Virus record (IMG/VR): IMGVR_UViG_3300024259_000011
Reading direction: 5' to 3' (one strand)
Source of the DNA: a virus
Taxonomy: Duplodnaviria; Caudoviricetes
Length of the DNA: 64,000 bases
The position numbers and the translations under genes were made by a program. Position 1 is the first letter of the stretch. Each line of letters begins with the position of its first letter. The notes under the pieces are model-generated. The model saw nothing but the letters and a program-made list of their open reading frames with translations. It made no database searches and was not told the DNA's origin. Shown in pieces: positions 1-52,891 of the stretch.

Positions 1-1272
1 GTCGGCGATAGCCTTCATGGTCAGAAAGTACTTGCTAAAACCTCGGTCATCGATGACGGATAGCTCACGGGTGAGGCGTTCAATGTATTCGTCATCCTCA
101 TGATAGCCGAGAGACTTCAGACCCTCAAAGCTTAGCTTGACCAGTGCATCAGTAGCGGTCAGTCCAGCGGGAACCACGAAGTCAGGAAGTCGTACAGTGT
201 TGTCCGGAAAAAAACTTTCAATGCGGTCGTGAGCAATCTTATACCCAGTTGTGATCGACTTGAGTACCACGTCATCATCGTACTCATAGTCCGCTGCATA
301 CTTCTCGTAACTCTCCCACATCTGATCGCCGTTCTTGGGATACAACTCGTATCCAATCTCTTCAACGTCAATCGGGAGTTCGCTGCTCTCGTATGCAGGC
401 TTGCTCTTTCCAAGCCAGCCTAGGCGCTTATAAAGTTCGCGATCCTTCCACGCAGTAGGATTGGGGTAATGACTGTCCGCTGTTGAAACTAAGTCAACGC
501 CAAACTCATTGTGCATTTCAATGATACACTGGTTCAGTGTGTGCTGCTCGGGAACATTGTTCCACTGCAGTTCACCATACCATCGGTCGCCAAAGATCGA
601 TTGCATTCGACGAGTAGTCGTCCGCATACGCTCTAGGCACTGTTCTCTGTCAAAGGAGCGACTGCCTTCATCGTCAGTCTCCCAGCTATGCCAGAAATCC
701 TGTGCATAAACTCCGCCCAAGCATGCAGAAGATGCAATGATGCCTTCCGAATACTTTTCAAGCAAAGCATAATCCATTCGGGGATAACGATAAAAGTTTT
801 CACTCTTGTAGCTTTCCGAAATGAGTTTGAAAAGGTTATTAAGTCCGGTCTGATTCTGGACAACGAGGACGAGGTGTGCGCGCAGGCGAAGGACATCCTT
901 CACAGTCTTTTTGCTCGCATCCTCGTCCTCGATAGTCGTACCAGATTGGGACTCTTCCTTTTTGTTCTTGACCTTCGCTCGCGCTTCATCATAATCAGTC
1001 CTCCACTCCGAAATAGACGGAATGAAGTAAGCCTCGACACCGAATACAGGCTTGAAGTCTTTACCTTCTGCCTGCATCTTCTTAGCATGCAGAACCTGAT
1101 GGGCTAGCCCATTCATATTACCATGATCCGTGAGAGCTAGAGCATCACAACCATTCTGGTATGCAAAGTCCATATGCTCCTGTGGATATCCGATAGCATC
1201 GAAAATAGAGCCAGCCACGCTGTGAGCGTGTAGGTTTACGAAAGGGATCTTAGATGAAACGCGAGTTGTCAT
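1..1272 (-). CDS. dnaE: DNA polymerase III alpha subunit (family C), N-terminal PHP part, runs off window start
   Basis: Manual translation from ATG at 1272 (absent from ORF track as no stop lies in the window): MTTRVSSKIPFVNLHAHS...LALTDHGNMNG...KPVFGVEAY...YGELQ...TADSHY...GFSKYFLTMKAIAD, the DnaE PHP-domain motifs. Confidence 0.92.
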   Translation of the reverse strand, partial: MTTRVSSKIPFVNLHAHSVAGSIFDAIGYPQEHMDFAYQNGCDALALTDHGNMNGLAHQVLHAKKMQAEGKDFKPVFGVEAYFIPSISEWRTDYDEARAKVKNKKEESQSGTTIEDEDASKKTVKDVLRLRAHLVLVVQNQTGLNNLFKLISESYKSENFYRYPRMDYALLEKYSEGIIASSACLGGVYAQDFWHSWETDDEGSRSFDREQCLERMRTTTRRMQSIFGDRWYGELQWNNVPEQHTLNQCIIEMHNEFGVDLVSTADSHYPNPTAWKDRELYKRLGWLGKSKPAYESSELPIDVEEIGYELYPKNGDQMWESYEKYAADYEYDDDVVLKSITTGYKIAHDRIESFFPDNTVRLPDFVVPAGLTATDALVKLSFEGLKSLGYHEDDEYIERLTRELSVIDDRGFSKYFLTMKAIAD

Positions 1273-9900: not shown

Positions 9901-9930
9901 TCTCAATTTATTCTCCTGAGTTGTGATACT

Positions 9931-9959
9931 ATAGTACCATAGATTGTTTGGTTTGTCGA
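9931..9959 (-). promoter_or_regulatory. sigma70-like promoter TCGACA-17-TACTAT
   Basis: Upstream of recA, followed by AGGAG. Confidence 0.55.
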
Positions 9960-9968
9960 GAGGTTTTT

Positions 9969-11030
9969 TTATCTAACTGCAAAGACAGTCCAAGAAACTC
10001 CCAGACTTGGATCATCATACATTCTTTCGCCGACTTTATAATGGGTCCGATTTGAATTTGAATATGTCGTACGCACTTTAGTAATTGGGCGAAGGCGGAA
10101 CTTGATATTGACATTAGGATCAGTGATATAATATTCTACGACTTCATCAATCGACTGAGTTTTCGCTAGAATATTTTGAAGGTCTGCAGGGTCGGTGATG
10201 CCGGGAGGTACATCAGCTATCAACACGGCATCTGCTCTCGCTGGATTCGTTTCCGCGCCGGCACACACAAGCGTTAAAAAGCTGCGGTAAGACTCACCCA
10301 ACACATCAGACAAATGAAGGTAAATGTTTTTTATTTTAAAAGAATTTTTCAGTAGCCCGTTCTTCCCAAAGGCTTCTGACACCGCCAAAGCTTGATGTGC
10401 TGCTCCATCTTTAGCCAGTGGGGAGGGGAAAGAGTACGAAGGGTCTGCTGCAGTCACAATCGAAAGGAATTGGTCCTTCTCTTCTTGGATCACAGATGCT
10501 TGTTCCGCTGTGATCTTTGCCAACTGCTCCTTCATGTCGTTTACAAGAATGTTACGAGCATCTTCCTCCAAGCCGACCTCGACAAGTTTTGCACGAAATT
10601 TAGCTTCATCCATCCGATTTTCTAAAAATCCAAAGTTTTCTTTCTTCATGCTTAGACCGATAGCGCCGCCGTCAGCTAGCACAAGGTTAATGTCTGCCTT
10701 TGGCTCTGGCTTGCCGCCGCCCATTTGTTTAGCGCCCACAACCATTTGCTCGCCCAAACTGCCAATGGTCATCGGAACAGGTTGACCACCGTTCGCGTTC
10801 ACAACGCTATTAACAGCAGCAACTAAGTTTCTCTCGCTATCCTGCCCAGACATTTGCTCTTGAAGTGACTCGGCTTCTGGAGCCAGAGAGCCAAAATCAT
10901 CGCAACCAATGGCAGAATCACAGATAGCAACTTCATCGTCTGCACCTGTTCCCAAATCTAACATTTCACCAGCCTCTTGCTCTTCTGTTAAGAATCTGCG
11001 CCAGCCTTCCATAATAGGTTTCATTGTCAT
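9969..11030 (-). CDS. putative PD-(D/E)xK nuclease with an N-terminal MKPIMEGWRRFLTE leader
   Basis: PEPKADINLV...IGLSMKK resembles the PKxD...SxK core of restriction-like nucleases; the ATG overlaps the TAA of the methylase (TAATG). Confidence 0.5.
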   Translation of the reverse strand: MTMKPIMEGWRRFLTEEQEAGEMLDLGTGADDEVAICDSAIGCDDFGSLAPEAESLQEQMSGQDSERNLVAAVNSVVNANGGQPVPMTIGSLGEQMVVGAKQMGGGKPEPKADINLVLADGGAIGLSMKKENFGFLENRMDEAKFRAKLVEVGLEEDARNILVNDMKEQLAKITAEQASVIQEEKDQFLSIVTAADPSYSFPSPLAKDGAAHQALAVSEAFGKNGLLKNSFKIKNIYLHLSDVLGESYRSFLTLVCAGAETNPARADAVLIADVPPGITDPADLQNILAKTQSIDEVVEYYITDPNVNIKFRLRPITKVRTTYSNSNRTHYKVGERMYDDPSLGVSWTVFAVR

Positions 11031-11875
11031 TACCCTATAATTAGTAGTTCGGATGAGGAACCCATTGTTTTTTTGCCAACACATTTGCCATCGACCCACT
11101 CGACGTTCTTCATGCCGTATGCCCACTCAGCAGTGACAAACTTGCGGTTAGAGTATAGATCACGGACCTCTGGACAATCATTGTATGACATTACCCAATC
11201 GGATCGGTCGGAAAGCAAGTTATAAAGCGCCATATGGTCAAATCCCGCGTGAAGCCCCCCTGCTTGCCCGTAGAGCATCGCAGCGTCTTCTGGCAGCATG
11301 TAGGGTGGGTCAAGGTACAGGAAGGCTCTAGGATGCCATGGGAGGCTTGTTTGAAAGTCTGCGTAGTCTACCCTGAAGTTCTCGGCGTTAAACCTGCGTA
11401 ATCGGTCGATAGACGACTGAGTGAAGCGAGCGTATGATGCTCTCTTAGACCAGCCACCAGAAAAGGTAGCGCCTGAGAAGCTAGAGCGATTGATCGCGTA
11501 GAACTTTGCCGCCTTCTCGTATGAAAACTTGAATGATGGATCTCGCAGTTCTTCACGAAGTTTAATAAAATCGTCTTTGGAACATCCTTCTACAAGTTTA
11601 GTAATGTCCTTCTCTTCAATCTCGTACTCCGTGCGTAGGGCGGTGACCTCATCAGCCAGCCTTTCGTTATCCGCACACAGCGCTTGCCAAAACCAAACAA
11701 GAGGCACCAGCTTGTCATAGCCGATAACCTCTGTACCTCTCGACGCTACCGCCAACTCAACCGAACCGCCGCCAAAGAATGGCGAACACAGACGCGAAAC
11801 GTCTTCGGGAATGTACGGCAAGATGTGCTTCACTGCACGCGATTTGCCGCCGGGATAACGAAGAGGCGTTTTCAT
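11030..11875 (-). CDS. dam: DNA adenine methyltransferase (Dam/D12 class)
   Basis: LRYPGGKS, motif I PFFGGGSV, INRSSFSG, motif IV YLDPPY, MSYND. Confidence 0.92.
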   Translation of the reverse strand: MKTPLRYPGGKSRAVKHILPYIPEDVSRLCSPFFGGGSVELAVASRGTEVIGYDKLVPLVWFWQALCADNERLADEVTALRTEYEIEEKDITKLVEGCSKDDFIKLREELRDPSFKFSYEKAAKFYAINRSSFSGATFSGGWSKRASYARFTQSSIDRLRRFNAENFRVDYADFQTSLPWHPRAFLYLDPPYMLPEDAAMLYGQAGGLHAGFDHMALYNLLSDRSDWVMSYNDCPEVRDLYSNRKFVTAEWAYGMKNVEWVDGKCVGKKTMGSSSELLIIG

Positions 11876-11897
11876 TTAAACTCTGGAAGAAGGATGG

Positions 11898-11929
11898 CGG
11901 CAGACTTTTAACCGGTCTGCCAGCGGCTT
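11898..11929 (-). ncRNA. structured element E3 (hairpin or H-type pseudoknot), near-copy of E2
   Basis: Sense sequence GCCGCT-GGCAGAC-CGGTTAAAA-GTCTGCC. Confidence 0.5.
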
Positions 11930-11932
11930 TGA

Positions 11933-12217
11933 CTACTCTGTGGTAGTCCCAGTGGTGGATGCGCCCGTAGCCGCACCGACCTCGCCATCTTCAGTCACCG
12001 TTGTCCCCTCAGTAGTCGTATTGGGGGTAACAGCCGTAGAAGGCGTGTTTGCTACATTGGTGGTTGTATCACCAGTGGTGATGGTCGCCGCCGTTGTTTC
12101 GGTAGTTACGATATCATCGCCGGTCACGGCTTGCCAGCCAATAACCACGGCACCAATAACGATAGCCACAATCACACCTTGAACTCTCCTATCGGAGAAA
12201 GAAAAAAGATTAGCCAT
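11933..12217 (-). CDS. single-pass membrane protein with Thr-rich low-complexity tail
   Basis: MANLFS start at 12217; hydrophobic VQGVIVAIVIGAVVIGW followed by a T/A/G-rich acidic tail. Confidence 0.65.
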   Translation of the reverse strand: MANLFSFSDRRVQGVIVAIVIGAVVIGWQAVTGDDIVTTETTAATITTGDTTTNVANTPSTAVTPNTTTEGTTVTEDGEVGAATGASTTGTTTE

Positions 12218-12218
12218 A

Positions 12219-12338
12219 TTATTCTGCTGCCTCGCTGCCTGTATCTTCAACCGCTGTATCTTCAGCGGCTGTGTCTTCGTCCTTATCCCCACACGCGAAC
12301 ATTAGCGCGAGAGGGAGAACATAAATAAAGTTCTTCAT
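12219..12338 (-). CDS. 39-aa lipoprotein not in the ORF track (MKNFIYVLPLALMFACGDKDEDTAAEDTAVEDTGSEAAE)
   Basis: AGGAG SD, positively charged N-terminus, hydrophobic stretch, lipobox-like MFA-C, acidic EDTA/EDTG repeats; fits exactly between the RNA elements and the next gene. Confidence 0.75.
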   Translation of the reverse strand: MKNFIYVLPLALMFACGDKDEDTAAEDTAVEDTGSEAAE

Positions 12339-12360
12339 TTTGTCTCCTGTATAATGAAAA

Positions 12361-12433
12361 ATGGCAGACTTTTGACCGGTCTGCCAGCGGAAAAATGGTG
12401 AGGCACCTGATAACCCTGTGCCTCCCTGTGGGA
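12361..12433 (-). ncRNA. tandem structured elements E1 and E2 downstream of the SSB gene
   Basis: E1 GAGGCAC-AGGGTTATCAG-GTGCCTC and E2 TGGCAGAC-CGGTCAAAA-GTCTGCCA, each followed by an ATTTTT tract; may also act as terminators. Confidence 0.5.
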
Positions 12434-12444
12434 TGGTTACATTA

Positions 12445-13218
12445 CTATGCGCCCATCAACTCATCAAAGGCGGCGTCAACCGGATCAGTCGTAGTGGTTG
12501 ACGGCGTGTACTTCTCAGTTTCACTGGAAGAAGTCTCGGCACTTTGATCTCCCGACAGATACTCATCGAGCATGGCTTCCACTTGCGCGGTAGTCGTGCG
12601 CTCAAAGAGCGTGTCGAAGTCGGGAATGTTGCCCAGAAGTTCTGCGCAGCGCTCATCTCCTCCTACAGCCTCATCGCATAGGGGCGAGGAACGACGACGG
12701 GGCGTCAGCTTCGTCTGGGGGAACGTGGCACCGGGAGGCTTACCATAAGTAAGACTCAAATCGGTACCCGATTCCGCATCAGTAATGTCCCCATATTCTG
12801 GGTTCAGTACAAGGCTAAGCAAGGACTCGTAAGCCATCTTGCCGTAGCCCCATGCACGTACACCAGAATCTTCTTCGCCACGTACGAGTACGGGACTAAA
12901 AAACCGCTGACGAGCGAAGAGACCTTTTGCCATCTTCTTTGCCTCTGCATCATCGTTTGCCGCTCCTTCCTTCCAGAGTTGGGAGGCAAACTCACACACA
13001 GGGCACCCGTCACCGTAGTTGCGCTTGGGGCACAAAAACCCACGGTTATTCCCCACGTTATAGTGGAAGAAGAACTCGCGGAAGGGGTCACCATCTTCGG
13101 TCGGAACAATGCGGATTGCTTGCTCGCCGTCGCTGGGACGCCAGAACTTGTTATCGCCGGAATCTTTGTTTTGGAGAGCATCCAGCTTCGCTCTCATTTT
13201 GCTAAGGTCAATAGCCAT
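12445..13218 (-). CDS. T4 gp32-like single-stranded DNA-binding protein
   Basis: KFWRPSDG, IRIVP, HY...LCP...CPVC zinc ligands, GDITD...GTDL, acidic C-terminus ending FDELMGA. Confidence 0.88.
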   Translation of the reverse strand: MAIDLSKMRAKLDALQNKDSGDNKFWRPSDGEQAIRIVPTEDGDPFREFFFHYNVGNNRGFLCPKRNYGDGCPVCEFASQLWKEGAANDDAEAKKMAKGLFARQRFFSPVLVRGEEDSGVRAWGYGKMAYESLLSLVLNPEYGDITDAESGTDLSLTYGKPPGATFPQTKLTPRRRSSPLCDEAVGGDERCAELLGNIPDFDTLFERTTTAQVEAMLDEYLSGDQSAETSSSETEKYTPSTTTTDPVDAAFDELMGA

Positions 13219-13278
13219 TTTGATTTTTCCTTTTGTTGGTTATAGTCAAGATGATAAATCTCTCATCTTGCTGTATAC

Positions 13279-13307
13279 AGTATAGCTTATTCTGAAGTCA
13301 AAGTCAA
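13279..13307 (-). promoter_or_regulatory. sigma70-like promoter TTGACT-17-TATACT
   Basis: Upstream of the SSB gene. Confidence 0.7.
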
Positions 13308-13573
13308 GAACTTTCTTCACTTTCTTCAAAGGGGCTATCCACTTCGATCTCTGACACGTCGCCGTCTGCCGTTTTCCAATTAAACATGCGGAATGCGTTC
13401 GTGTCCAAATCCCATACCAGTTCCATCCCCTCTGCGAGAGTGGACTTGCGACCGGTTCCCTTGACCTGAGAAGTGATAAACTTCTCGGGAATGTCGGTCA
13501 TACGGACAAATCGCATGGTGCGCGAGTCTCCGTTCTTCTTAGTAAATGTGCCGTTATATGCTTTCATCAGCAT
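13304..13573 (-). CDS. small SH3/WYL-like phage protein
   Basis: TFTKKNGDSRTM...VWDLDTNAFRMFNW pattern typical of small T4-like SH3-fold proteins. Confidence 0.6.
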   Translation of the reverse strand: MLMKAYNGTFTKKNGDSRTMRFVRMTDIPEKFITSQVKGTGRKSTLAEGMELVWDLDTNAFRMFNWKTADGDVSEIEVDSPFEESEESS

Positions 13574-14412
13574 TAGATCTCCTGTTGTATCTCAGATGTA
13601 TTGGCTATTAGATAGCCAAAGTTGTTGGTGTAGTCAGTAGAGTGAATCCGTACCGAAACGATAGTTTCATCACCTACCATTTTTGCGCTACGTTCGCGCA
13701 AAGATGTAAATAGCTTGCCGTCTGTTTCAAGCTGCTCTTTGTTGATAGCATAAATATAACATCTTTCGTTGATGGTGTCAAGGGGAAAGAACAACTTTTC
13801 TTCATTTTTTTCAATATCCACCACGCCGAAGGTCGAAACCCGGGCTGTTGTCAGCGCTGTTGCTGGTGTGTTGTAGACGGTCTTTGTATTCAGGAAAACG
13901 TTTGTCATGTGTATCGTGTCAACGATTAGCTCATTTAGACGTTTATAATACCCTATAACGGGCACGTTGTCAAGCACTTCTTCTATCTTTTTGTTATCGA
14001 CCAGATAAATCTTCTCAAAGATGCCAGACCTTGCATATTCCTGCAGCACATAATAAGCTGTGCGCTCATGCAGAAGTGCCTCCTTGCTCAGAAGGGAGCG
14101 ATCCGGCTTGACATAAAGAATATTAATCTTGCATCTCTGGATTTGTTCTAGGATCTTTAATGTTGCCGCTGAAACCTTTCCGGCGCCGCAGACGATAAAT
14201 AGCACTTCGTCGTCTTTCTTTAGTGTTCTAAAGAACGTCTTAAGGTTTAACGGGTCACCCTCGTAGCCCACTACATTGGCAGACTCAGGAATAGGATAGC
14301 AGCCTTTGCCCTTTGTCAGCCCAACGTCAAGCTTATAAACATTGTATTGTGGATACTGCGCAAACCCGTCTGCGATGTTGCAGCCGGCAGCGCCTAAACC
14401 GATGATATTCAT
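13573..14412 (-). CDS. divergent FtsZ/tubulin-like GTPase-fold protein
   Basis: N-terminal IIGLGAAGCNIAD (T1 loop), FIVCGAGKVSAAT at the position of GGGTGSG, and LVDN as in FtsZ IxIDN. Confidence 0.7.
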   Translation of the reverse strand: MNIIGLGAAGCNIADGFAQYPQYNVYKLDVGLTKGKGCYPIPESANVVGYEGDPLNLKTFFRTLKKDDEVLFIVCGAGKVSAATLKILEQIQRCKINILYVKPDRSLLSKEALLHERTAYYVLQEYARSGIFEKIYLVDNKKIEEVLDNVPVIGYYKRLNELIVDTIHMTNVFLNTKTVYNTPATALTTARVSTFGVVDIEKNEEKLFFPLDTINERCYIYAINKEQLETDGKLFTSLRERSAKMVGDETIVSVRIHSTDYTNNFGYLIANTSEIQQEI

Positions 14413-14420
14413 TCTTCACC

Positions 14421-16802
14421 TCAACTATATAAAAAGTTTTTCCAGTTCTTAACGATAGACTCGTTAGTGGTTTGTGCAGGGGGAGTGTCCATGTCTCCCC
14501 GACCAGTAAGACCGTCGCCAACTATGTGACTGAACATTGCCTGAATCTTTGCGTCAAGCACCTCTTCGTCTTCCCACTCCTCGATTGTCCACTTCATAGC
14601 CTTGACTTGGGCTTCGCTGCTGTGATCATAGCAGGAAAAGGTCAGAACAAGCCTGATGTTGGCTTCGTCTGTCGTGCGAATCTCTTCGGTGTACACTCTG
14701 AAGTCTGGATATTGACGATCATCACCTGATACCTGTGTACCTGCCCATGCTTTCTCCACCAGCGCTTTGCGTAATGGAATAGTAAAATCTCTGCTCTCCA
14801 AGATCGTGCGTGCGTCTTGGACGCTCATGCCTTCTGGTATAGCAGGATATGCTGTGTGTGAGCCATCAATCTCAGTATACGTCATGGGCTCTTCTTCGTT
14901 GGCAGTCATGTCCCATTCGTAGTAATCAGCATCTCCGTTTTCGATCTCCTGACCCCACTCGTTGATGGTGCCGCCTTCCATAAAGCCGTCGCGCTTAGCC
15001 ATGCGAGTGATCTCGCCTTTGACGGCATCGTACATGTCATCGATGCGATTTACTTCAATACAGTAATCTTCAAAGCTATCAGGATCATAGACTATTCCTT
15101 CCTCTATGATGCCTTCGTTGTCCATATCAATAGTAAGTCTGATGGTGCCATTGGAGTACTTCAGTAAGCGAGTGCCGTGGCTATCCTGTGCCCAATTCCA
15201 TTCATAGTCTTGAAGCTCAGCCATCCAGTACCCGACAGCTTTGCCGTCCTGTGGTAGAGAATCCCATTCGTCTATTTCCCAATCTATATTCATTTCGGCG
15301 GCTGCATCGATGTAGAAGCTTTCATCATAGTCTTCTGTGACTTCTGCTTGGACTCGACATGCTTGATAGCGGTTATTCCAATCGGCGGCTGTGTCGTCGC
15401 ATTCTTCTTGGGCGTTAGCCATTTGCCCTTGAATGAATCTCATGTCCGGAAGCGACTGTTCTGTTTCTTCGTTCTGTCCCATGAGTTCATATTCGATACC
15501 GGTCAAGTCTTTTACAAGCTCTTTAATATTATTATCCTCGTAGGATCCGCCGTACTTGACCAGCCAGCCATCGTCTGGACTTAATGTTGAAATAACCCCT
15601 GACTGGTTTTCTTTAGCCCATGCTTGCACTCTGTCGCGGAAGCCGGGAATCCTCAAGCCATAGACGCGGCTTTCTGGTACAGCAATCTGTGGTCCGTTTC
15701 CGTATTTGGCTGCAGACCTATCAGCGTATGCGCGAACCTGACGTAAGCGGACGCGGGCTACGGGAAGCATCTCCATAGATAGTCCGACATGGCTACCGCG
15801 TATGTCATCCGCAAATATCTCACCATCATATTCGTGAATATATTTTTCAGCGCCTTCGATAGTCTCGGACCCGGTGGACTCTAATAGCTCCGCAGTTTCC
15901 ACCACGTAAGCAATAGCGCCATGACCGTGAGCCTCTGCGACCGCACATTTAAAATAAGACGTATCACCACCTCTAGATGGCGGTGAGTGGCATGACGTAA
16001 TCCGATTGAAGTCCGACATGCGGATAATGTCAACAGGATCCCGTGAAATGATAATGCTGTATTTGTTTTCGGTTAGATTGCCGATGTTCTTCTTAATGTA
16101 ATCGGCATTCTGCTGCCAGTATACTTGCATTTTCTTGGCGTCTGCTGAGCTAAGCGTGAGTCCGCCAAGATACATTTGAAGCTGATCGAATAACTGGTCG
16201 TACCTCTTCACTTCCTGCTCATCGAGGGCTGCGGCAATCATCTTTCCTGTAAGCTGACCGGGCTTGTCGAGTGCTCCGTAACCGCCTTGAGTATAGCCAA
16301 TACTATTTAAGTGATCGAAGACCTTTTGAGAGAGCGCTTCTCTCTTTGAAGCCAGTTCATAAATCTTTCCGAAAAACTTACCGATCTTCATCTGGACTTT
16401 CTTCTTTTTAGGGATGGTGTTCGCTAACGTTGCGGCATCCTGAAAGCCCAGCGCAGCGACCGAAGCTGAGATACTGCTATCCTTTAACTCTCTTTCGCCC
16501 GAAATCAGACCTTTTTCCCAATCTACGTCATAGCCCGCTTTGCGGAACCCATCGACAAACTTTCCTAAGTCGCTGGAAGTATTCATTGTCGGAAAATCGA
16601 GCACAAGGCGCGTTTTGCCTCCAAACAGTTCGTTAAACGCCAGTTCGTCCGGCTCGAAGCCATCGATGACATCTTGGATAACCGAGATCTCGTCTTCATC
16701 CAGTTCTCGGAGCAATTTCCGCTCTGTGTACATTTTTGGCTTTTTAGCCGGTTTTGCGGCTTCAGTTAAAAAACTGCGCCAGCTATTTTCATCATAACTC
16801 AT
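14421..16802 (-). CDS. large hypothetical protein (793 aa) with W-x-x-F-L motifs at both termini
   Basis: Long ORF with GAGG SD; internal ISRDPVDIIRMSD...TSCHS...YFKCA motif; acidic C-terminal half. Confidence 0.75.
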   Translation of the reverse strand: MSYDENSWRSFLTEAAKPAKKPKMYTERKLLRELDEDEISVIQDVIDGFEPDELAFNELFGGKTRLVLDFPTMNTSSDLGKFVDGFRKAGYDVDWEKGLISGERELKDSSISASVAALGFQDAATLANTIPKKKKVQMKIGKFFGKIYELASKREALSQKVFDHLNSIGYTQGGYGALDKPGQLTGKMIAAALDEQEVKRYDQLFDQLQMYLGGLTLSSADAKKMQVYWQQNADYIKKNIGNLTENKYSIIISRDPVDIIRMSDFNRITSCHSPPSRGGDTSYFKCAVAEAHGHGAIAYVVETAELLESTGSETIEGAEKYIHEYDGEIFADDIRGSHVGLSMEMLPVARVRLRQVRAYADRSAAKYGNGPQIAVPESRVYGLRIPGFRDRVQAWAKENQSGVISTLSPDDGWLVKYGGSYEDNNIKELVKDLTGIEYELMGQNEETEQSLPDMRFIQGQMANAQEECDDTAADWNNRYQACRVQAEVTEDYDESFYIDAAAEMNIDWEIDEWDSLPQDGKAVGYWMAELQDYEWNWAQDSHGTRLLKYSNGTIRLTIDMDNEGIIEEGIVYDPDSFEDYCIEVNRIDDMYDAVKGEITRMAKRDGFMEGGTINEWGQEIENGDADYYEWDMTANEEEPMTYTEIDGSHTAYPAIPEGMSVQDARTILESRDFTIPLRKALVEKAWAGTQVSGDDRQYPDFRVYTEEIRTTDEANIRLVLTFSCYDHSSEAQVKAMKWTIEEWEDEEVLDAKIQAMFSHIVGDGLTGRGDMDTPPAQTTNESIVKNWKNFLYS

Positions 16803-16817
16803 GAAATATCCTCTGCC

Positions 16818-16829
16818 TTATAAATAGTT
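16818..16829 (-). promoter_or_regulatory. late-type promoter motif AACTATTTATAA
   Basis: One of about 11 ACTAHTTAH-like motifs upstream of gene starts (see findings). Confidence 0.6.
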
Positions 16830-16887: not shown

Positions 16888-18120
16888 TCAAGCGCATTTA
16901 GTTTTGAGCACTAAATCGACCATGTTCCCAAAGTCGCGACCGACCTTTGTGTTAACTTTGAAGTCACCCAGCTCGGTCTGGCTGAAAAGGTTAATAAGTT
17001 CTGGTATCATTCCTCGCTCGGAGGCGGCAAGGTCGATAACGATTGAGTCGTGAAGGGTGAAAGCGATCTGGCTTCTGCAGTCTCTAAGGCGCTCATTGAT
17101 TTCAATAAGCCTCCGGAGGGTAACGTCCACGCAACTACTTTGAATAATATAAGACAGAGAGTGATGGTGATCGCTAGGAATGGTCCGTCCGAATCGTGTC
17201 CTGACATGTGTGCCGGTCCAATGCGAGCCAATAATTCTCTCTCTTCGGTACGTTTCTTCCAGTAGTTTTTCCACAGTCCCATCATTATTAGTTAGTGTGC
17301 CAGTGACATTTTTCCTACCGTATAGCCACGCAAAGATTCTACGCTTCGCTTCCTGACGATCTACGTCACCAAAAATATTCTTAATGTTCCACTCATGAAT
17401 GTCCTCTACTGGCTGCTCTTGACCAGCTAGTGCCAAAGCCACGCGGAGTTCTGCGGCATTATAATCCAACTCCAAGAACCAATCGTTACTTGGCTTGAGC
17501 ACAGAACGATACTGCTTGTCGAGTGTCAAGATGGGGAAGCTGCCCGGGCTGTTTGTTAGCCGACCGGTCTTCGTGCCCCATATATTATAACGACAATATG
17601 GTGTATACTTCTGGAGGTTCTTTACAAACTTTCTGGTAGCTGCCTTGTGATAGATTGGGCGGATGCCCTCTGTGCTAATGCTTAGCTCATTGTATCGAAT
17701 ATCATCAAGCGCTGTAGCCAACTGCTTGATAAAGTCATAGTTGTCGGGCTTCTCGTAGGTGTCGAACACATGTTGTGTGATCCGGCTCTTAACCTCGCAG
17801 TAGTCCAGTAGAAACTGGCGTGGAACCAAGTCAAAAAAGCAGTTCTCGTCCAACGATACTTTGGCAAAGCCGAATGACCGAAAATATGCGCGGAGCTTGT
17901 CTCTTACAGCCTCCCACTGTGTCCTCAAACGAGGCGGGCACACTTGGTCCAAGGACAGACCGCCACAGTAAAACTTGGCATACTCCACTTCGGTGTCCCG
18001 CAGGAACGTGCTATAGTCCCATGTGCGTGATAGACCTGTGGGTAGGTGGTCGTGGATCAGTTCGCCATCAAGATATATGCCTACGCATTCTTTCTTGTCG
18101 TCTAGTGTCTGGAATAACAA
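16888..18120 (-). CDS. compact family A DNA polymerase-like protein
   Basis: TKTGRLT, motif A LELDYNAAELR, motif B RQEAKRRIFAWLYG, IIQSSCVD, motif C TLHDSIVID; probable TTG start at 18120. Confidence 0.8.
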   Translation of the reverse strand: MLFQTLDDKKECVGIYLDGELIHDHLPTGLSRTWDYSTFLRDTEVEYAKFYCGGLSLDQVCPPRLRTQWEAVRDKLRAYFRSFGFAKVSLDENCFFDLVPRQFLLDYCEVKSRITQHVFDTYEKPDNYDFIKQLATALDDIRYNELSISTEGIRPIYHKAATRKFVKNLQKYTPYCRYNIWGTKTGRLTNSPGSFPILTLDKQYRSVLKPSNDWFLELDYNAAELRVALALAGQEQPVEDIHEWNIKNIFGDVDRQEAKRRIFAWLYGRKNVTGTLTNNDGTVEKLLEETYRRERIIGSHWTGTHVRTRFGRTIPSDHHHSLSYIIQSSCVDVTLRRLIEINERLRDCRSQIAFTLHDSIVIDLAASERGMIPELINLFSQTELGDFKVNTKVGRDFGNMVDLVLKTKCA

Positions 18121-18133
18121 GTGCTTGCCTGAG

Positions 18134-19978
18134 TTAAATGTACAGCATGAATTGTCCGCGACCAGCATTGCTTCTTTCGCGGTTTACATATCGGTTAAAC
18201 GTCTTTGCTTTATTTTGTACTGTTCTGTACGGCGGATTGCCACCCGGGGAGGGCAGTCTGTCCGTCTTGTTATTAATATAATCTAATGCTTGGTTCCCGT
18301 CAAGGTTTTTCTGAATATCTGCCAAATCTTTGACATTTTGTTCAAAGATCCTCTGAGTCCAGTCAACTGCCGCCTCTCTAGCGCGCACAAACAAGTAGAG
18401 TTTGGCTGGGAAGTCTGTACCGAAGATGTTAGAGAAAACGTCGTAAGAAGAAGGCTTCTTGTTGGCGTTGGCGTTCTTGCGGTTGATCGTTTTACCCGCT
18501 AGCATAGAATGGTTTTCTCTTTTGATGGTCGCGTAGTAGCTGGTGTCTGCTGATGCGGCGCCGTCGAATGCGATGGTGCTGCGATAGTGAGTGAGCACCA
18601 CAACCTCTGAGTTTGCACCGGATGCTTCGGCGCTGGAACGGTGGACGGCGATGGCTTGCGAAGGGAATGACCCAGCAAACGAGTTCCACATGCTAACAAA
18701 GTAGTTCATCAAGACCTTTAAATCTGTAGAGTCTGCTCTATAATAGCATGTCCGGAACATGATGTCAAGGTTTTTAGTTTGATATTTTTTGATCAATTCG
18801 TCATATGTTTGCGCCAGTTTATACGCCTCGTCTCTCTGTCCGCGTCTAGTCTGGGTGCCTGTTGCTATTTTCTGGTACCCGTCGCGGCGGCGTACTAGCT
18901 CCGGAATGTTTGTCCCTTTGCCATTGACATCTTTACCTTCTACTGCCCAGTCACGGATGTACCGGCGCATGGGAGTTGACATTACATCAGCAACCAGTCT
19001 CCAAGGGCAGTTGAAATCGACCATGAAGCCAAACTTTTGAGCCATGGCAACAAATAATTCAAAGTTCGGATCGTTTAAATACTTTTCCTTCTTCGTTACA
19101 TCGTCATTCGGATTCTCTTTATACAAATCGATTTGCCATCCGCTGATCGCTCGATTACATTCGCCACTCATGATATACCCAGAGCGTGTGAACTGTACCA
19201 TGGGAGCCGCAATATCTATGAAGCGCAGCATGTACTGCATAAAGTCCTTAAAGTTTAATATTTTCTGTTGACGACCTTCTGATTTTACCCACTGCTGAAA
19301 CCCTTCAAAGATTCTTTCCATGTTGGCTTGGTACTGCGGGTGTATACTGGTCCAACCGCTTTTCACCGTGAGCTTGCCGTCTGTACTGGGGCGGAACACA
19401 CCTACATTAGCAACCATCGGTCCAGTGCCCTGACCTCTTTGGTTGCTAGCCCTAATATTCATGCGAAAGAAGCGAGTCCATTCCTTTTGGAAATCTCTCC
19501 ACGCATGCGCCACAAATACTGGCGCCATGATGGATCCATCTCCTTTGTTGAGCGATGTAAGATACGCTTCTGAAAGGTAGATGGCATTTTGGTTAATATC
19601 CACTTTCCCGTACATCGCTTTGTCGTACCAGAAGTCAATCATACCCAGCGACCATCCACCGATGGAAGTATATCTGGGAGCATATGATTCCCAGTGTATG
19701 CGGCGGGCAAACAAAGTAGATGCCTTGTCTGCATCTGTGGCACCCCACCATTTGGCGTCCTCGCCACGGGCGCGAGCCATCTCAATAGAAATGGCAGGAA
19801 CGTGAATGAAATCTTGTAGCGAAGGCTGGCGACCACTGCGATATGGGATCCGTTTGATCCCCTTCCGTTTGCGTGGATCTTTTGCCTCGTAAAGACCCGG
19901 AGGATCAACAATAACCTTTACGGCGCCCGTATTTAAACGCTTTATAAGCGCTAGTGTTTTCTCATCTGAATCTGACAT
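18134..19978 (-). CDS. hypothetical protein (614 aa) at the end of the tail/baseplate block
   Basis: Long ORF with GGAGGAG SD and an upstream TATTTATA motif; no family recognised. Confidence 0.7.
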   Translation of the reverse strand: MSDSDEKTLALIKRLNTGAVKVIVDPPGLYEAKDPRKRKGIKRIPYRSGRQPSLQDFIHVPAISIEMARARGEDAKWWGATDADKASTLFARRIHWESYAPRYTSIGGWSLGMIDFWYDKAMYGKVDINQNAIYLSEAYLTSLNKGDGSIMAPVFVAHAWRDFQKEWTRFFRMNIRASNQRGQGTGPMVANVGVFRPSTDGKLTVKSGWTSIHPQYQANMERIFEGFQQWVKSEGRQQKILNFKDFMQYMLRFIDIAAPMVQFTRSGYIMSGECNRAISGWQIDLYKENPNDDVTKKEKYLNDPNFELFVAMAQKFGFMVDFNCPWRLVADVMSTPMRRYIRDWAVEGKDVNGKGTNIPELVRRRDGYQKIATGTQTRRGQRDEAYKLAQTYDELIKKYQTKNLDIMFRTCYYRADSTDLKVLMNYFVSMWNSFAGSFPSQAIAVHRSSAEASGANSEVVVLTHYRSTIAFDGAASADTSYYATIKRENHSMLAGKTINRKNANANKKPSSYDVFSNIFGTDFPAKLYLFVRAREAAVDWTQRIFEQNVKDLADIQKNLDGNQALDYINNKTDRLPSPGGNPPYRTVQNKAKTFNRYVNRERSNAGRGQFMLYI

Positions 19979-40576: not shown

Positions 40577-42328
40577 CTATGAGCTTGAACCTGACTCGCC
40601 GAGCAAGCCACGAACGACAACTAGACCGTACATATCAGGACGCACCATCTTCTTAGCGTAGCGTGTCATGACACCCTTGCGTGGCACGAAGTCCTCGACA
40701 CCAAAGATGGTGGGAGTGACTTGCAGTGGCACATAAGGTGCGTACACATATCCGCTTTCGAGGAAGCTTCCGCCCTTGCGTCCAACCAGAACAAGATTCC
40801 GTGGGAAGTAAGGATCAACATAAACGTCCCACTTCTTGGAAATACTTCCTGTTTGAACAGCACCGACAGTACCCTTGGAATCTTCCATGGATACCTTAGC
40901 ACGGAATCCACTGGTGAACTCAAGGATGTTGGCAACTTCTGGTCCGCAGACAAGGAAGTTAGCACCACCACGCAGAGTCTTGCGATGGATCTGGGCTGAA
41001 ATGTCATTGATGGTTTCGATCAGAGTCTCATACCATTCGCTGACTGTGCCCGTGAAGTCTGGAGCCTTAGTAGCGGCGCCGAGTTCGGCACCGGTGGTTC
41101 GCTTCACGAACAGACCCGGGGAGCGTGACCAGTAATAAGTACCGGCGGTTGCGCCCTTGATAAGATCTTCAACGATCTCACGGTCGATCTCAAGAGCAAT
41201 CTGCTCAGAGAGAATTGAGGTAAGCTCGACCTCGGCATCCAGATTGTGATAGGCATTTAGATCCTGTCCCAATTCTGGAGTCCACTTAGCCTTGAGCTTC
41301 TTGGTTACGGCAGTGACACTGACGGAATCAACTTTGATGTCGATCTCGGCAATACCCTCGTTTGCTTCCAGTCCCCAATCATCAGTTCCGACGACAGCGC
41401 CGAGAGCCTGATTAGAACCTGCAGCGGCAGTACCAGTGAAATCATCAACCAATGGGTGATAAATAATGGTAGATGCGTCACCGGCTCCAACACCAACAAC
41501 GCTGCTGAACGAGCCTGTAGCGTGGATAACAACTTCCAGAATAGATCCGGATGCCTTGGTGAGACGACGTACCGGTGTTGATCCAGAAGGATCAGACCGT
41601 GAGGCGCCATCGGCGCCAATATCGACGTTGAGAGCAACGGGGTTCTGGTTACTGCCGTCAAGACCCATCACCTGACGCTGGGCGTCGGTAAGGGTAATGT
41701 GCAGAACCTGCGCGTATGAACCTGATGCGAGATCAGGATCGAAACGAAGGTACTTATCAGTGCCGGCAGAATTGCCAACCATGAATACACCTTCACCGGA
41801 ATCCGCTACCGTCGTATAAGCAAGCGTGAGCGAGCCAGTCGGAGAAGAAGATCCGTTGTTTAGGGCGTAGAAAGATTTCTCGCCGTGACGACTTGTGCCG
41901 TCATCATCGACGGAAACACCGCCGGTGATCTCTTGACCCACCACATTGCCACCGTAAAGTGACTCGGCTGCTGCAGCGTTAAGCTTAGCATTCGTGTGTT
42001 GGAAGTCGAGGAAAAAGATAAGTCCACTTGGTAGACTCATCGGTTGAACTGACACTAGGTCGTTCGCGATGAGGGCACCGAATACGCGACGAACGATGGG
42101 GAATGCAACAGCGGCAAATCCTTCAACGTCACCACCAGCCATGGTGGATGCCTCACGAAGTAGTTCTCTAGCTTGGTTCTCAAGTAGTCGAGCCATGGTA
42201 TCACGCTTCCGACTATTCTCAAGACCTTCTAGAAGACCTGTGCGCTCCCACTTATCCATAAGTGCGGCGCCTTCCTTCGACACATCGCGAGTAACGATAC
42301 CTTCAGTCAATTTGTTAATAATAGACAT
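40577..42328 (-). CDS. major capsid protein (T4 gp23-like)
   Basis: KWERTGLLEGL, PIVRRVFG.LIANDLVSVQPMSLPSGLIF, KLKAKWTPE.GQDL.AYH.LDAE.ELT, YAPYVPL, GVMTRYA. Confidence 0.96.
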   Translation of the reverse strand: MSIINKLTEGIVTRDVSKEGAALMDKWERTGLLEGLENSRKRDTMARLLENQARELLREASTMAGGDVEGFAAVAFPIVRRVFGALIANDLVSVQPMSLPSGLIFFLDFQHTNAKLNAAAAESLYGGNVVGQEITGGVSVDDDGTSRHGEKSFYALNNGSSSPTGSLTLAYTTVADSGEGVFMVGNSAGTDKYLRFDPDLASGSYAQVLHITLTDAQRQVMGLDGSNQNPVALNVDIGADGASRSDPSGSTPVRRLTKASGSILEVVIHATGSFSSVVGVGAGDASTIIYHPLVDDFTGTAAAGSNQALGAVVGTDDWGLEANEGIAEIDIKVDSVSVTAVTKKLKAKWTPELGQDLNAYHNLDAEVELTSILSEQIALEIDREIVEDLIKGATAGTYYWSRSPGLFVKRTTGAELGAATKAPDFTGTVSEWYETLIETINDISAQIHRKTLRGGANFLVCGPEVANILEFTSGFRAKVSMEDSKGTVGAVQTGSISKKWDVYVDPYFPRNLVLVGRKGGSFLESGYVYAPYVPLQVTPTIFGVEDFVPRKGVMTRYAKKMVRPDMYGLVVVRGLLGESGSSS

Positions 42329-42354: not shown

Positions 42355-43380
42355 TTAGTTAATGCCAGCTAGTTTCTTCATGCGATTTACTGCATGTTCG
42401 GAACCAACTGACCTCTTGTTTTTGCGTCTTGGTAAAGTGGTAGACTTTCTATTAATAGCTTCGCTCAGTGATTCTGGAGCACGCTTTCTTGAAGCGGTTC
42501 CCACTGTGCTCTGAAGGGTTTCATAAATAACCTTCACTTCCTCGACAGTTCGTGACTTAGACAGTGCTTCGACAATTTTACTTTTTTGTCGCTCATTCAA
42601 GGAGACACTATTCAACACACGATTAGTATAAACGAGCCTTGCATTTGAGAGATTGACTTCCTGTAGGTTGTCTTTCATCTTCAAAGCAATACTCTTTAAT
42701 TGTTCATAATCCTTAGCAAGTCTCTTCTTCTCGTTGGAGAGAGAGTTAACTTGCTCTTCTAATTCTTTTGTAGCCTTACGCAGTTCTTTATTTTCCTCAG
42801 CAACATTGGAGTCTTGCTCCTGTGCGAGTGCCTGCAGTTCGGCTTCCTCAATTTCTGTACTAGTGGCATCACCCGGGTGACCTGTAGGTACGGGCTTGAC
42901 ATCAACCTTAACATCTTCAGTTAGTTCCTGAAGGATTTCCGCCAATTGCTCATCTGTTAAATCAATCTCATCTGATTCCTCAGACTCTTCTAGAGCCATC
43001 ATCGCGTCTTCGCGGGGCTCTGCAGCACCGCCACCAAGTCCGCCCATTTCCTCTTCGGCGGCGACCTGTGCGGCTAACTGATCCAAATCAAGCTCAATCT
43101 TCTCTTCCTCATCAGGACATGGGCAAAGCTTTTCACCCTCTGCATATGCAGGGGTAGCGCCCAAATCATCCATGGGGGTTTCTTCTTCGGGGCTTTCGAC
43201 TCCCGGCTCTTCAGGGAAAAGACCCAACTCTTCATCTTCAGGTGCTTCGTTCAAAAGAGCGTCAACAGCGCCTTTGATTTCCGGAGCGTATTTCTCAAGA
43301 ATTTGAGTTTCGGCGTTCTTAAGCGCAGCCTCTTTTAAAGCTGCTGCATCGACAATCGCCTGTTCAAGCATGTTAGACAT
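42355..43380 (-). CDS. prohead core scaffold protein (gp22-like)
   Basis: Very acidic coiled coil upstream of the MCP; EVNLSNARL.Y.N, ends RMKKLAGIN. Confidence 0.8.
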   Translation of the reverse strand: MSNMLEQAIVDAAALKEAALKNAETQILEKYAPEIKGAVDALLNEAPEDEELGLFPEEPGVESPEEETPMDDLGATPAYAEGEKLCPCPDEEEKIELDLDQLAAQVAAEEEMGGLGGGAAEPREDAMMALEESEESDEIDLTDEQLAEILQELTEDVKVDVKPVPTGHPGDATSTEIEEAELQALAQEQDSNVAEENKELRKATKELEEQVNSLSNEKKRLAKDYEQLKSIALKMKDNLQEVNLSNARLVYTNRVLNSVSLNERQKSKIVEALSKSRTVEEVKVIYETLQSTVGTASRKRAPESLSEAINRKSTTLPRRKNKRSVGSEHAVNRMKKLAGIN

Positions 43381-48800: not shown

Positions 48801-49167
48801 TAGTGTTTCCCCCCTTCGCTCTCTGTCGGCGTAACTTGCTTTGGCGCTTGAGGCGAGCTTCTTTCTTACGCTCTGCCTTCTTCCTTAGCCTTTCAGCCTC
48901 GCGGATAGAGGCGGCACGTTTAATTCTTTTCGCTTCGGAGGGTTTCGTATAATATTGTCTTTCGCGGATCTCTTCAACAATGCGTTCTTTTTTACACTTG
49001 CGTATAAATCTCTTGATTGCTTTTTCGATTGGTTCGTTTTTTCGAGGCACAACAGTAACGTTCGCCTGCACGGGCGGACCCGGCGCATACTCTCGCTCTC
49101 GTTGGCGATTATTATTACGTCTCCGACCATTGTTTTTATTGTAATTGTTGTTTCTACGAAACGCCAT
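48784..49167 (-). CDS. rpsU: ribosomal protein bS21 with basic N- and C-terminal extensions
   Basis: VTVVPRKNEPIEKAIKRFIRKCKKERIVEEIRERQYYTKPSEAKR matches the bS21 consensus (E..E.AL.RF.R...K.G...E.R.R..YEKPS). Confidence 0.88.
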   Translation of the reverse strand: MAFRRNNNYNKNNGRRRNNNRQREREYAPGPPVQANVTVVPRKNEPIEKAIKRFIRKCKKERIVEEIRERQYYTKPSEAKRIKRAASIREAERLRKKAERKKEARLKRQSKLRRQRAKGGNTSGSTR

Positions 49168-49669: not shown

Positions 49670-50089
49670 CTAAATGAATTTGCCCCAAGAGTCGCCTGCA
49701 ATATTTAAGATTCCATCAATATTAACACCCGGGTCGTTTGGAGCTATGCCACCAAGAGGGCTCCCGGGCTTGGGTTCTCCGGACGGAGCGGTGGTATTAG
49801 CCATCGCTTCTGTTCCTTCAAAAATGTTAACACCGCCGTAGGCATCCTTGTTGATTGACTCAATAAGATCCTGTCGCGCCTGAACTCGACCCGGGCTTGG
49901 TGCCGGATAGGGTTTTTGTGGTGGCTTGGTAGTAGAGGCAGCTTTCTGCTCTACCAATGAGGACGCGCCAGTAAGCCCCTGTGCAACCTCAGAGATAATA
50001 CCAGACAAAACCCCATCTTCAAACATGACTTCTTTAATGCATTCTTTGATCAGGGGTTTGAGCACAGCCTTTAGTTCGGCTTTGTTCAT
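49670..50089 (-). CDS. hypothetical protein (LKPLIKECIKEV N-terminus)
   Basis: 139-aa ORF in the head module with SD. Confidence 0.65.
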   Translation of the reverse strand: MNKAELKAVLKPLIKECIKEVMFEDGVLSGIISEVAQGLTGASSLVEQKAASTTKPPQKPYPAPSPGRVQARQDLIESINKDAYGGVNIFEGTEAMANTTAPSGEPKPGSPLGGIAPNDPGVNIDGILNIAGDSWGKFI

Positions 50090-50090
50090 A

Positions 50091-50465
50091 TTACTCCCCT
50101 TCAGGTGCCGGAAGCGGAGCTTCCTCGTTTCCAGCGACTTTAACGCCCATCTCTTGAGCCAGTGCCAGCATCATTTCAGAAGGAGACATGCCAAGTGCCT
50201 CGGACGCTGCGTCCAAAACAGGTGTCGCTTCGCCTTCGCCCCTTGCAGCAACTCTGCCGCCAACGGTAGCGCGTTGATATGCGGGTCGTTCTCTGTGAGA
50301 TCCGTGTCTGCCTCCGGGCATGCCCATTCCGCCAAGACCAATCTCTTCGATCTTCTCGTCGTCATCGGCACCCTCAGTGGTGACTTCTTCCTCGTCCTCT
50401 TCGTTCATAACTGACTCTAGTTCCTCAAGGATAATAGCCTTGAGCCTTGCCTTAGTGATTTTCAT
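50091..50465 (-). CDS. acidic hypothetical protein (MKITKARLKAIILEEL leader), possible internal head protein
   Basis: Follows the prohead protease gene; N-terminal basic helix ending in I-L-E-E. Confidence 0.65.
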   Translation of the reverse strand: MKITKARLKAIILEELESVMNEEDEEEVTTEGADDDEKIEEIGLGGMGMPGGRHGSHRERPAYQRATVGGRVAARGEGEATPVLDAASEALGMSPSEMMLALAQEMGVKVAGNEEAPLPAPEGE

Positions 50466-50471
50466 TTCGTT

Positions 50472-51080
50472 TTACTCCTCAACGATTTCATTTAATAAGC
50501 GGTTAATCTTGTCCGCTTTAGTAAGAATGTTTGGTTCTTCATAACTCTTGCCTTCACTTAGTCCCATGAAGGCGTCGGGAGTTGAGGGCTCTGATACAAA
50601 GTCAAAGCAGATTAATTGAAAATCATCTTCGACCATGGTGCGCCCTTGCGACTCACTGACCGAACCCAGCCCGCGAGAAGAAATCCCCAACTTGACACCA
50701 TCATTAACAAGCTCTCGTAAGATCTTGCCCGATGGTGTACCTAAAATTTTGACCTTTCCCATAACCGAAGGTCCGTCCCACCACACATCAGTGACCATGT
50801 GGGAGGCGTTCTTAAGGTTAATAACAGAATCCTCAGGGTGGTCTAGTTCCCCAAGGGCTCTTTTCTCTTTTACCAACTTCTGGTAATTCTTCATCTCTCT
50901 TTCTAGGATTCTCCTAGGATAGACACGTCCATTACCATTCTGAACATCTGCTTCTTGCAGCTTGCCAGAGAGCATCATACCGCCATTTCCGATATAGATC
51001 TTCTCCTCTTCCGTCAGGAGATCCTGACAGACGCCGCCTTCGCATAGTTCATAATATTCTCGTAAAAGTATTTTCTTCAT
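50472..51080 (-). CDS. prohead protease (T4 gp21-like)
   Basis: QNGNGRVYP, ALGELDHP, KNASH, GTPSG, GISSRGLGS, FDFVSEPSTPDAF. Confidence 0.93.
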   Translation of the reverse strand: MKKILLREYYELCEGGVCQDLLTEEEKIYIGNGGMMLSGKLQEADVQNGNGRVYPRRILEREMKNYQKLVKEKRALGELDHPEDSVINLKNASHMVTDVWWDGPSVMGKVKILGTPSGKILRELVNDGVKLGISSRGLGSVSESQGRTMVEDDFQLICFDFVSEPSTPDAFMGLSEGKSYEEPNILTKADKINRLLNEIVEE

Positions 51081-52076: not shown

Positions 52077-52891
52077 TAGCTGTTAATCTCCGCTGCTAGT
52101 TCTTGAATCTTCATGATTTGCATGAGCATATCACGGTCGATCTGGCGTTGTGAAAAGCCGTTCAAGGTTGCCATGACCTTATTTGTCTTGGCAAGCATTT
52201 TGGTGTCGCCGGAGATCTCATTAAGTGAGCGTGAGTCGCCCACAACATTCTTAAGCCTAGCTAACTCTTCGTTCAAGAACATCTTAAGCGCAACACCATT
52301 GTCAGAGAACGAAACAATGTATGCGCTCAGCAGATTGTTCTGCTCAACGCGCAATGTTTGCGAATACTGATCATTAAACTTCTTCACGAAGGTCTGATAA
52401 ACAATATTATCAATTGGTTTTGTATTCTCAGTCAGTGCTTCGACTGAAGAATTCATTTTGCTCAGAACCTTGTTCTCTAAGAGGGTACGCCTCTTGATAG
52501 TGGTTCTTGTATCAAAGATCTGTGCGATAGTCGCAAGGTCTTTGTAGTTAGGCACAAACGTAGTAAACGTGTCCTTGCCCAGTTCTCTGTTGATGGTGCC
52601 AATAAGCTGCGACTGCTGCTCAAACGCCTCTTCTTGATTCAAAGCGCTGTAAACTCGCTTGACTTCCAAAAGAAGCTTCTCTGCAGTCATCTCATTGACA
52701 TCCGTAGTCTCGTATAGGGTTCTGTAGAGTTCAAGTTCAAGCCCCAGAGTTGTATCACGCCTAAAGAACTCTTTCATGATGGATACTATCTTTCGTTTCC
52801 GAACAACATCCTTGTTCACTACGCTGATGGTTAATTCTCTCACTAACGTTTCATATAAAAACGCTGTATTTCTTTTTTTGTTATGCTTCAT
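52076..52891 (-). CDS. helical hypothetical protein downstream of portal
   Basis: Likely start MKHNKKRNTAFLYE at 52891. Confidence 0.7.
   Translation of the reverse strand: MKHNKKRNTAFLYETLVRELTISVVNKDVVRKRKIVSIMKEFFRRDTTLGLELELYRTLYETTDVNEMTAEKLLLEVKRVYSALNQEEAFEQQSQLIGTINRELGKDTFTTFVPNYKDLATIAQIFDTRTTIKRRTLLENKVLSKMNSSVEALTENTKPIDNIVYQTFVKKFNDQYSQTLRVEQNNLLSAYIVSFSDNGVALKMFLNEELARLKNVVGDSRSLNEISGDTKMLAKTNKVMATLNGFSQRQIDRDMLMQIMKIQELAAEINS

Follow-up and report, generated by a model that had tools for sequence, protein, structure and literature searches.

We analysed a 64,000-nucleotide stretch of viral DNA (IMG/VR record IMGVR_UViG_3300024259_000011; the whole stretch is referred to here as the window), which belongs to an uncultured T4-type marine myovirus and in which a short peptide tag recurs at the ends of unrelated proteins. 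The tag is about 14 residues long overall, and its core consists of a hydrophobic pair, any residue, N/G/S, W, R/K, any residue, F and L. In the window it is carried by a 351-aa protein at the N-terminus and by a 793-aa protein at both termini. Its likeness to the capsid targeting sequence (CTS) of phage T4 suggests that the tag is probably a label of the CTS type, which directs proteins into the capsid and can be removed by the phage protease.

A six-frame scan of the long open reading frames (ORFs) of the window for W[RK]xFL found three sites, all of them at protein termini: the N-terminus of the 351-aa protein (MKPIMEGWRRFLTE, 10983–11024, minus strand), the N-terminus of the 793-aa protein (MSYDENSWRSFLTE, 16761–16802, minus strand) and the extreme C-terminus of the latter (E-SIVKNWKNFLYS, 14424–14462, minus strand). 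The looser pattern W..F[LIVM] was found at four sites in real genes, every one terminal, the fourth being WGKFI, with which a head-module protein ends. The initial annotation of this DNA had proposed a recurrent leader of this kind, and all of the peptides it quoted were found where it had placed them: MKPIMEGWRRFLTEE begins the ORF ending at 9969 (ATG at 11024), MSYDENSWRSFLTEA begins the 793-aa ORF (14421–16802) and NWKNFLYS closes the same ORF. The enrichment at protein termini on which that proposal depended was likewise seen, as the three sites above show.

The 793-aa protein (14421–16802, minus strand) is a conserved putative cargo protein with 634 homologues. In the best 120 of these metagenomic homologues, which are 35–90% identical, the C-terminal tag was kept in 111, the N-terminal tag in 70 and both in 63; the motif is therefore well beyond chance. 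The C-terminal tag is a complete second copy of the core, I-V-K-N-W-K-N-F-L against L-L-E-N-W-R-K-F-L, and is preceded by a conserved Glu. C-terminal tags end one to three residues past the L (two residues in 81 of the homologues). In 80 of the 111 C-terminal tags a Glu is located six residues before the W, with L, T, F, V or I two positions before that Glu, and among the termini listed none has a Glu after the L. Residues E781, W787 and L791 of the 793-aa protein are each at least 90% conserved.

At the N-terminus the position of the Glu is different. When N-terminal W..F[LIVM] sites were collected without selection for Glu, 108 of 130 had E at +6, against a background of 7.5%. The conserved Glu thus always lies between the tag and the cargo, after N-terminal tags and before the C-terminal tag. 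This cargo-side position argues for cleavage, as a motif used only for docking has no reason to move its Glu. AlphaFold2 models place both tags of the 793-aa protein in helices joined to the body by disordered stretches, with a helix at residues 5–16 and a disordered linker at 12–28 at the N-terminus, and a disordered stretch at 764–781 followed by a helix at 781–792 at the C-terminus. In the model of the 351-aa protein the tag forms a helix of residues 2–14 on a low-confidence linker.

Comparison with T4 found a match position for position. In the T4 record, internal protein III (IPIII) begins MKTYQEFIAE|A, IPI begins MKTFKEF and Alt begins MELITE; the maturation cleavage of gp23 falls within FGSFLTE|AEIGG. 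Within the T4 CTS, positions 4 and 7 serve mainly in targeting and positions 8 and 10 in processing (PMC9026906). When the tag is matched by sequence to MKTYQEFIAE, its W falls on Y4, its F on F7, its L on I8 and its E on E10. The 793-aa protein contains SFLTEA, the exact sequence at which T4 gp23 is matured, and FLTE is found in both window proteins. The initial annotation had pointed to an [IL]-x-E site of the gp21 type, and the tag does end in such a site, with a gp21-family protease encoded in the same window.

The CTSs of IPII, IPIII and IPI are likewise N-terminal peptides of 10–19 residues, in which an aromatic-x-x-Phe is followed by [IL]-x-Glu (Mullaney and Black 1996, reviewed in PMC9026906 and PMC3012670). 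In both systems the cargo is unrelated and fast-evolving, the leader being kept while the body is swapped, and homologues of gp21, gp23 and the protein at the gp22 position are present here. The tag differs from the T4 CTS in having Trp for Tyr, a longer hydrophobic lead-in (MKLL[LF]EN) and a C-terminal form; it is also found on far more cargo families, many of them enzyme-like whereas the T4 proteins are small and basic, and it is known from sequence alone. The suggestion in the initial annotation that the system might be undescribed was not borne out, since its layout is that of the T4 CTS together with the Alt propeptides (PMC9026906, PMC5694885).

Alt, the injected ADP-ribosyltransferase of T4, loses two propeptides by cleavage: a 6-residue piece at ITE-6 and a 63-residue piece at LTE-619 (PMC5694885). 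The 793-aa protein has an Alt-like layout, as a large, putatively late protein with a peptide at each end set off by an x-x-Glu site, and removal of both peptides is predicted by analogy. Unlike in Alt, its C-terminal piece would be 12 and not 63 residues long, and its two ends copy one motif. The layout is all that the two proteins were found to have in common: the 793-aa protein has no Pfam family, and no ADP-ribosyltransferase fold was among the rows of the fold search.

The tag is portable. In related viral contigs, MKLL[LF]ENWRxFLxE heads at least 45 clusters that are unrelated once the tag is removed, in agreement with the modular tag that the initial annotation had envisaged. A scan of viral contigs for L-E-N-W-R-x-F-L-x-E found at least 135 sites in at least 120 viral loci, and among the matches listed most tags began no more than 12 residues from the start codon, typically after Met plus 4. 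Pfam identified HD, NUDIX and cytidylyltransferase-like domains in the tagged cargo; HAD-like DxDxT starts and a J-domain-like start were recognised by eye, as were a NUDIX box, a ParB-like DGHHR motif and a nucleotidyltransferase-like motif in the tagged set of a complete relative, G005. The codons for Arg, Leu, Phe and Glu of the tag vary synonymously, and selection therefore acts on the peptide and not on the RNA. Two unusual placements were also seen. In locus L030 a full-length tag is found at the C-terminal end of a 611-aa ORF, which ends ...LFENWRGFLKED, and in L049 the tag lies 215 residues into a 467-aa frame related to the L030 ORF; gene fusion, recoding or an unusual start codon may account for these cases. 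Another C-terminal form is represented by a family of 115–123 aa (L040:3046-3417, L117:3829-4176), whose N-terminus is apparently membrane-associated and which ends exactly in W-R-x-Y-L.

A leader shared by so many proteins might be a signal for degradation or turnover at the N-terminus. One class of ClpX recognition sequence has the form M-basic-three hydrophobic-x5-hydrophobic, and MKLLLENWRKF fits this loose pattern. Such a signal would leave unexplained the C-terminal copies, the invariant Glu, the copies in the head module and the late-type motif described below, and we regard this explanation as highly improbable.

An exchange of bodies behind a constant leader was seen at the locus of the 351-aa gene (9969–11024, minus strand). 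This gene is located directly downstream of a gene for a Dam-like D12-class N6-adenine DNA methyltransferase (11030–11875, minus strand; Pfam PF02086, E 4e-25), which forms the left border of a variable cargo slot extending to RecA; a further ATG at 11030, upstream of the ATG at 11024, overlaps the Dam stop codon as TAATG. Comparison of the slot in the window (9906-11030, minus strand) with G003:29190-30257, G002:49154-50113 and L006:4787-5812 found that close relatives have three unrelated bodies following one and the same leader start. Between relatives, the DNA homology breaks off 8–28 nt inside the shared leader and is regained ahead of RecA. The slot thus behaves as an exchange site for cargo cassettes, and it resembles the genes for T-even internal proteins, in which the CTS alone is conserved (PMC3012670). 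The abrupt end of homology within the leader could also mean that the leader is functionless and arose as a side effect of recombination at a conserved 5′ junction. We consider this scarcely credible, as the codons vary synonymously under a fixed peptide and the tag is found at many loci, on at least 45 families and in conserved C-terminal copies.

The 351-aa protein itself appears weakly but consistently to be restriction-endonuclease-like, of the PD-(D/E)xK type. Its top structural matches were MspI (Z 5.9, root-mean-square deviation 5.6, 166 aligned residues) and HinP1I (Z 5.7), with Z below the level that excludes chance, and these were followed by other restriction and Holliday-junction nucleases of the PD-(D/E)xK fold. 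E107-P-K109-x-D111 and S125-M-K127-K are invariant in the family. No Pfam family was found for the protein, and its sole match in PHROGs was weak (E 0.0015) and was not relied on. The N-termini of the family are modular: part of the members have W-R-x-[FY]-L-x-E, part have other leaders and part are leaderless before the conserved core.

The enzyme presumed to remove the tag is a prohead protease of the gp21 family (50472–51080, minus strand; Pfam Peptidase_S77, PF03420, E 2e-32). Over 174 residues it shares 34% identity with T4 gp21, and its GELDHP and GISSRGLGS align with GELNHP and GVSSRGLGS of the T4 enzyme. A PF03420 protease was found in all five complete tagged genomes tested. The major capsid protein (MCP) belongs to the gp23 family (40577–42328, minus strand; Pfam Gp23, PF07068, E 3e-73). 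BLASTP aligned LLRE|AS of this protein in register with FLTE65|AE of T4 gp23, and its probable maturation site is LLRE58|AS. The initial annotation had also listed three related leaders in the head module, MKITKARLKAIILEE at 50465, MKKILLRE of the protease at 51080 and MSIINKLTE of the MCP at 42328, each of which is present as described. The first of these represents a second class of portable leader, as shown below; the brief [IL]-x-E sequences with which the MCP and the protease begin are candidates for ordinary propeptides of the gp21 type and not copies of the W-containing tag.

The gene for the protein at the gp22 position (42355–43380, minus strand), a scaffold protein with 4847 homologues, is located upstream of the MCP gene, and its product is a candidate receptor for the tag. 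Residues 18–35 of the MCP (ALMDKWERTGLLEG) align with residues 4–20 of T4 gp23 (ELLNKWKPLLEG), and the T4 segment is tag-like (L-L-x-x-W-K-x-L-L-E). Judged from this alignment, the tag may be a mimic of the capsid-protein segment that contacts the scaffold.

The leader MKITKARLKAIILEE belongs to p124, an acidic head-module protein of 124 aa that is encoded beside the protease gene (50091–50465, minus strand). This second leader class, MKITK[TA]xLKQIIKEE, is found at the start of many unrelated small proteins of related contigs (L122, L090, L077, L087, L088, L093 and G005:106766-107824), and in L122 four genes with such leaders are found in a row. The adjacent gene encodes p139, a 139-aa head-module protein ending in the WGKFI mentioned above (49670–50089, minus strand; 769 homologues). 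Its homologues share a near-invariant start, MKKSELKKILKPLIKECIKEV.FE, in which three [IL/F]-x-E sites of the gp21 type are stacked, and they keep G-x-W-x-x-hydrophobic-hydrophobic near the C-terminus. By analogy p139 is probably a prohead core protein with a role like that of T4 gp67/gp68, as stacked N-terminal sites would suit a core protein that is fragmented by cleavage.

Genome-wide counts were taken from G005, which is 203 kb in size with terminal repeats. All 11 strict tags in this genome are N-terminal, and its head genes have the same order as in the window. Two of the tagged genes flank the protease gene within the head module: one encodes an acidic protein of 182 aa starting MKLLLEHWNRYLQEEEE, and the other a 356-aa protein with ...ATWRTFLNEG and a scaffold-like C-terminus. 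Around the gene for the 793-aa homologue there is a cluster of seven other tagged genes. The G005 gene at 123980-125050 was considered as the scaffold gene and ruled out; the scaffold homologue is located at 132996-134174 and is untagged.

The two tagged genes of the window are each preceded by a late-type promoter-like motif, as had been claimed from the initial reading. CTAATTATA (11036–11044, minus strand) lies 12 nt before the ATG at 11024, within the last Dam codons, and CTATTTATA (16819–16827, minus strand) lies 17 nt before the start of the 793-aa gene. The coding strand of the window has 13 copies of the consensus CTAWTTAY, and the opposite strand has none. Six copies lie 3–50 nt before starts, those of four structural-region genes and of the 351-aa and 793-aa genes, and variants precede two more structural-region genes. 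Within the replication region, only the 351-aa and 793-aa genes have the motif at this spacing, and early-region genes such as the primase gene have promoters of the sigma-70 type (TTGACA-N17-TATACT). In G005 there are 63 copies on the coding strand against 7 on the opposite strand, and they are found before the scaffold gene and before several genes of the head module and downstream of the MCP gene. Among the loci fetched, 19.7% of tagged genes had the motif within 50 nt upstream, compared to 10.6% of untagged genes, and its reverse complement was found at about 1%.

The location of the two genes could also indicate that the tag is a docking motif for a hub outside the capsid, such as a sliding clamp, a gp32-type single-stranded DNA-binding protein, a nucleotide-synthesis complex or a tubulin-like protein, and that it recruits enzymes to a replication factory. 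Both genes are found among replication genes (RecA, Dam, gp32, PolA-like and DnaE), the 793-aa gene is coupled to a gene for a tubulin-like protein, and many of the cargo proteins act on nucleotides. The motif is moreover placed at either terminus, and clamp-binding peptides function at either terminus of a protein. However, the late-type motif precedes the 351-aa and 793-aa genes and not their replication neighbours, the Glu switches to the cargo side, and the tag fits the T4 CTS at each position. In G005, tagged genes flank the protease gene in the head module and the adjacency of the 793-aa and tubulin-like genes is absent, and there is no clamp gene within the window. Docking to such a hub is therefore, in our judgement, fairly unlikely.

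For the capsid-loading label that we favour, we infer core binding, cleavage, packaging and injection as follows. The tagged proteins would be made late, and the amphipathic helix of the tag, held on a flexible linker, would bind a component of the scaffolding core during prohead assembly. The gp21-type protease would then cut after the Glu that parts tag from cargo, at F-L-x-E| in N-terminal tags and at [L/T/F/V/I]-x-E|, six residues before the W, in C-terminal tags. The freed cargo would stay in the head with the DNA, and would probably enter the host with it.

The same sequence evidence would be expected if the tag bound a head or core component for assembly or regulation alone, for instance by tethering proteins to proheads or keeping them inactive until cleavage, with no delivery of cargo to the next host. 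For Alt, too, it is an open question whether the two propeptides serve to target the protein, to tether it or to control its activity (PMC5694885). Against this, the T4 proteins that bear a CTS are packaged and delivered (PMC9026906), and the diversity of the cargo and the variable slot suit effectors in an arms race better; we hold a purely assembly-related or regulatory role to be quite unlikely.

Several observations weigh against capsid loading as the function of the tag. The close relatives of this phage have Thr, and not the canonical Leu or Ile, two positions ahead of the C-terminal Glu (TNE), and tagless orthologues exist for both the 351-aa and the 793-aa families. The 351-aa and 793-aa genes are both placed in the replication region, only about one in five tagged genes has CTAWTTAY directly upstream, and the name 'late' for this motif is our inference, which derives solely from the company of structural genes. 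Many cargo proteins look like ordinary enzymes of nucleotide metabolism (HAD, NUDIX, HD) and not like classic internal proteins. Finally, no match was obtained among 50,697 cultured phage records when both proteins and the 23-aa leader were searched by megablast and tblastn.

If the tag does load capsids, the injected cargo of widespread uncultured T4-like marine phages of about 200 kb could be listed from genome sequence alone, and candidate enzymes for counter-defence and takeover of the host could be identified without culturing. The T4 principle of capsid targeting would then also cover a C-terminal form and two classes of leader, and its range of cargo types would be far wider than that of the T-even internal proteins. 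The pair of tag and protease could serve as a tool for loading proteins into capsids, as the T4 CTS already does. A bolder version is possible, and we advance it only tentatively: that the tag is a two-way address label, which functions at either terminus, is removed in every case by a cut on its cargo-facing side and makes the packaged and injected set of abundant ocean phages readable from sequence. An arsenal of enzymes (nuclease, NUDIX, HD, HAD, nucleotidyltransferase and ParB-like) might then be delivered with the DNA, including a restriction-type nuclease that is encoded beside the gene for Dam, by which the phage DNA would be protected, and that would be able to attack host DNA on entry.

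Two further systems are comparable in part. Encapsulin cargo-loading peptides are short, are found at either end of unrelated enzymes and address cargo to the inside of a shell with the HK97 fold; they bind the shell protein itself and stay uncut by protease. They thus resemble the tag as terminal addresses on unrelated enzymes, but have no sequence similarity to it. In the phiKZ-like giant phages (SPN3US, phiKZ and 201phi2-1) a protease related to gp21 also cuts after Glu, and the propeptides, which are borne by ejection proteins and head proteins, are thought to target proteins to the prohead (PMC5694885). These phages differ in having A/S/G-x-E sites and propeptides often longer than 100 residues, and no short portable consensus tag has been described for them (PMC5694885). 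Among the full texts searched for the tag strings, no paper was found to mention them.

The function of the body of the 793-aa protein was also searched for. It has no PHROG family, as it has no Pfam family, and all of its 634 homologues are metagenomic, with none in cultured phages. Foldseek searches against the PDB and AlphaFold DB clusters and a look-up in the ESM Atlas gave no usable function; the C-terminal half showed a weak likeness, with low TM scores, to small alpha/beta domains. A lead to PcfJ (score 0.82) was under the level of trust and was set aside. The start of the tubulin/FtsZ-like gene (13573-14412, minus strand; 279 aa, with a GLGAAGCN loop) overlaps the end of the 793-aa gene, and its product had no match in Pfam or PHROGs. 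The idea that the two genes form a functional pair was dropped, as in G005 the adjacency is lost and the tubulin homologue adjoins gp32.

Coding in the window is almost wholly on the minus strand. In addition to the MCP and protease genes (PF07068 and PF03420), the window contains the genes for a T4-type portal protein of the gp20 type (52881-54854; Pfam PF07230) and the large terminase. The replication set comprises RecA/UvsX-like, Dam-like, gp32-like, PolA-like, DnaE-like and SbcCD-like proteins, DnaB, primase and ribonucleotide reductase. The N-terminus of the DnaE-type polymerase, with a PHP domain, is encoded at 1-1272 (minus strand), and a compact family A polymerase-like protein at 16888-18168 (minus strand); the latter gene sits between a late-motif gene and the 793-aa gene. 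In the head cluster, a homologue of ribosomal protein bS21 with long basic extensions was found at 48784-49167 (minus strand; Pfam PF01165, E 3e-15).

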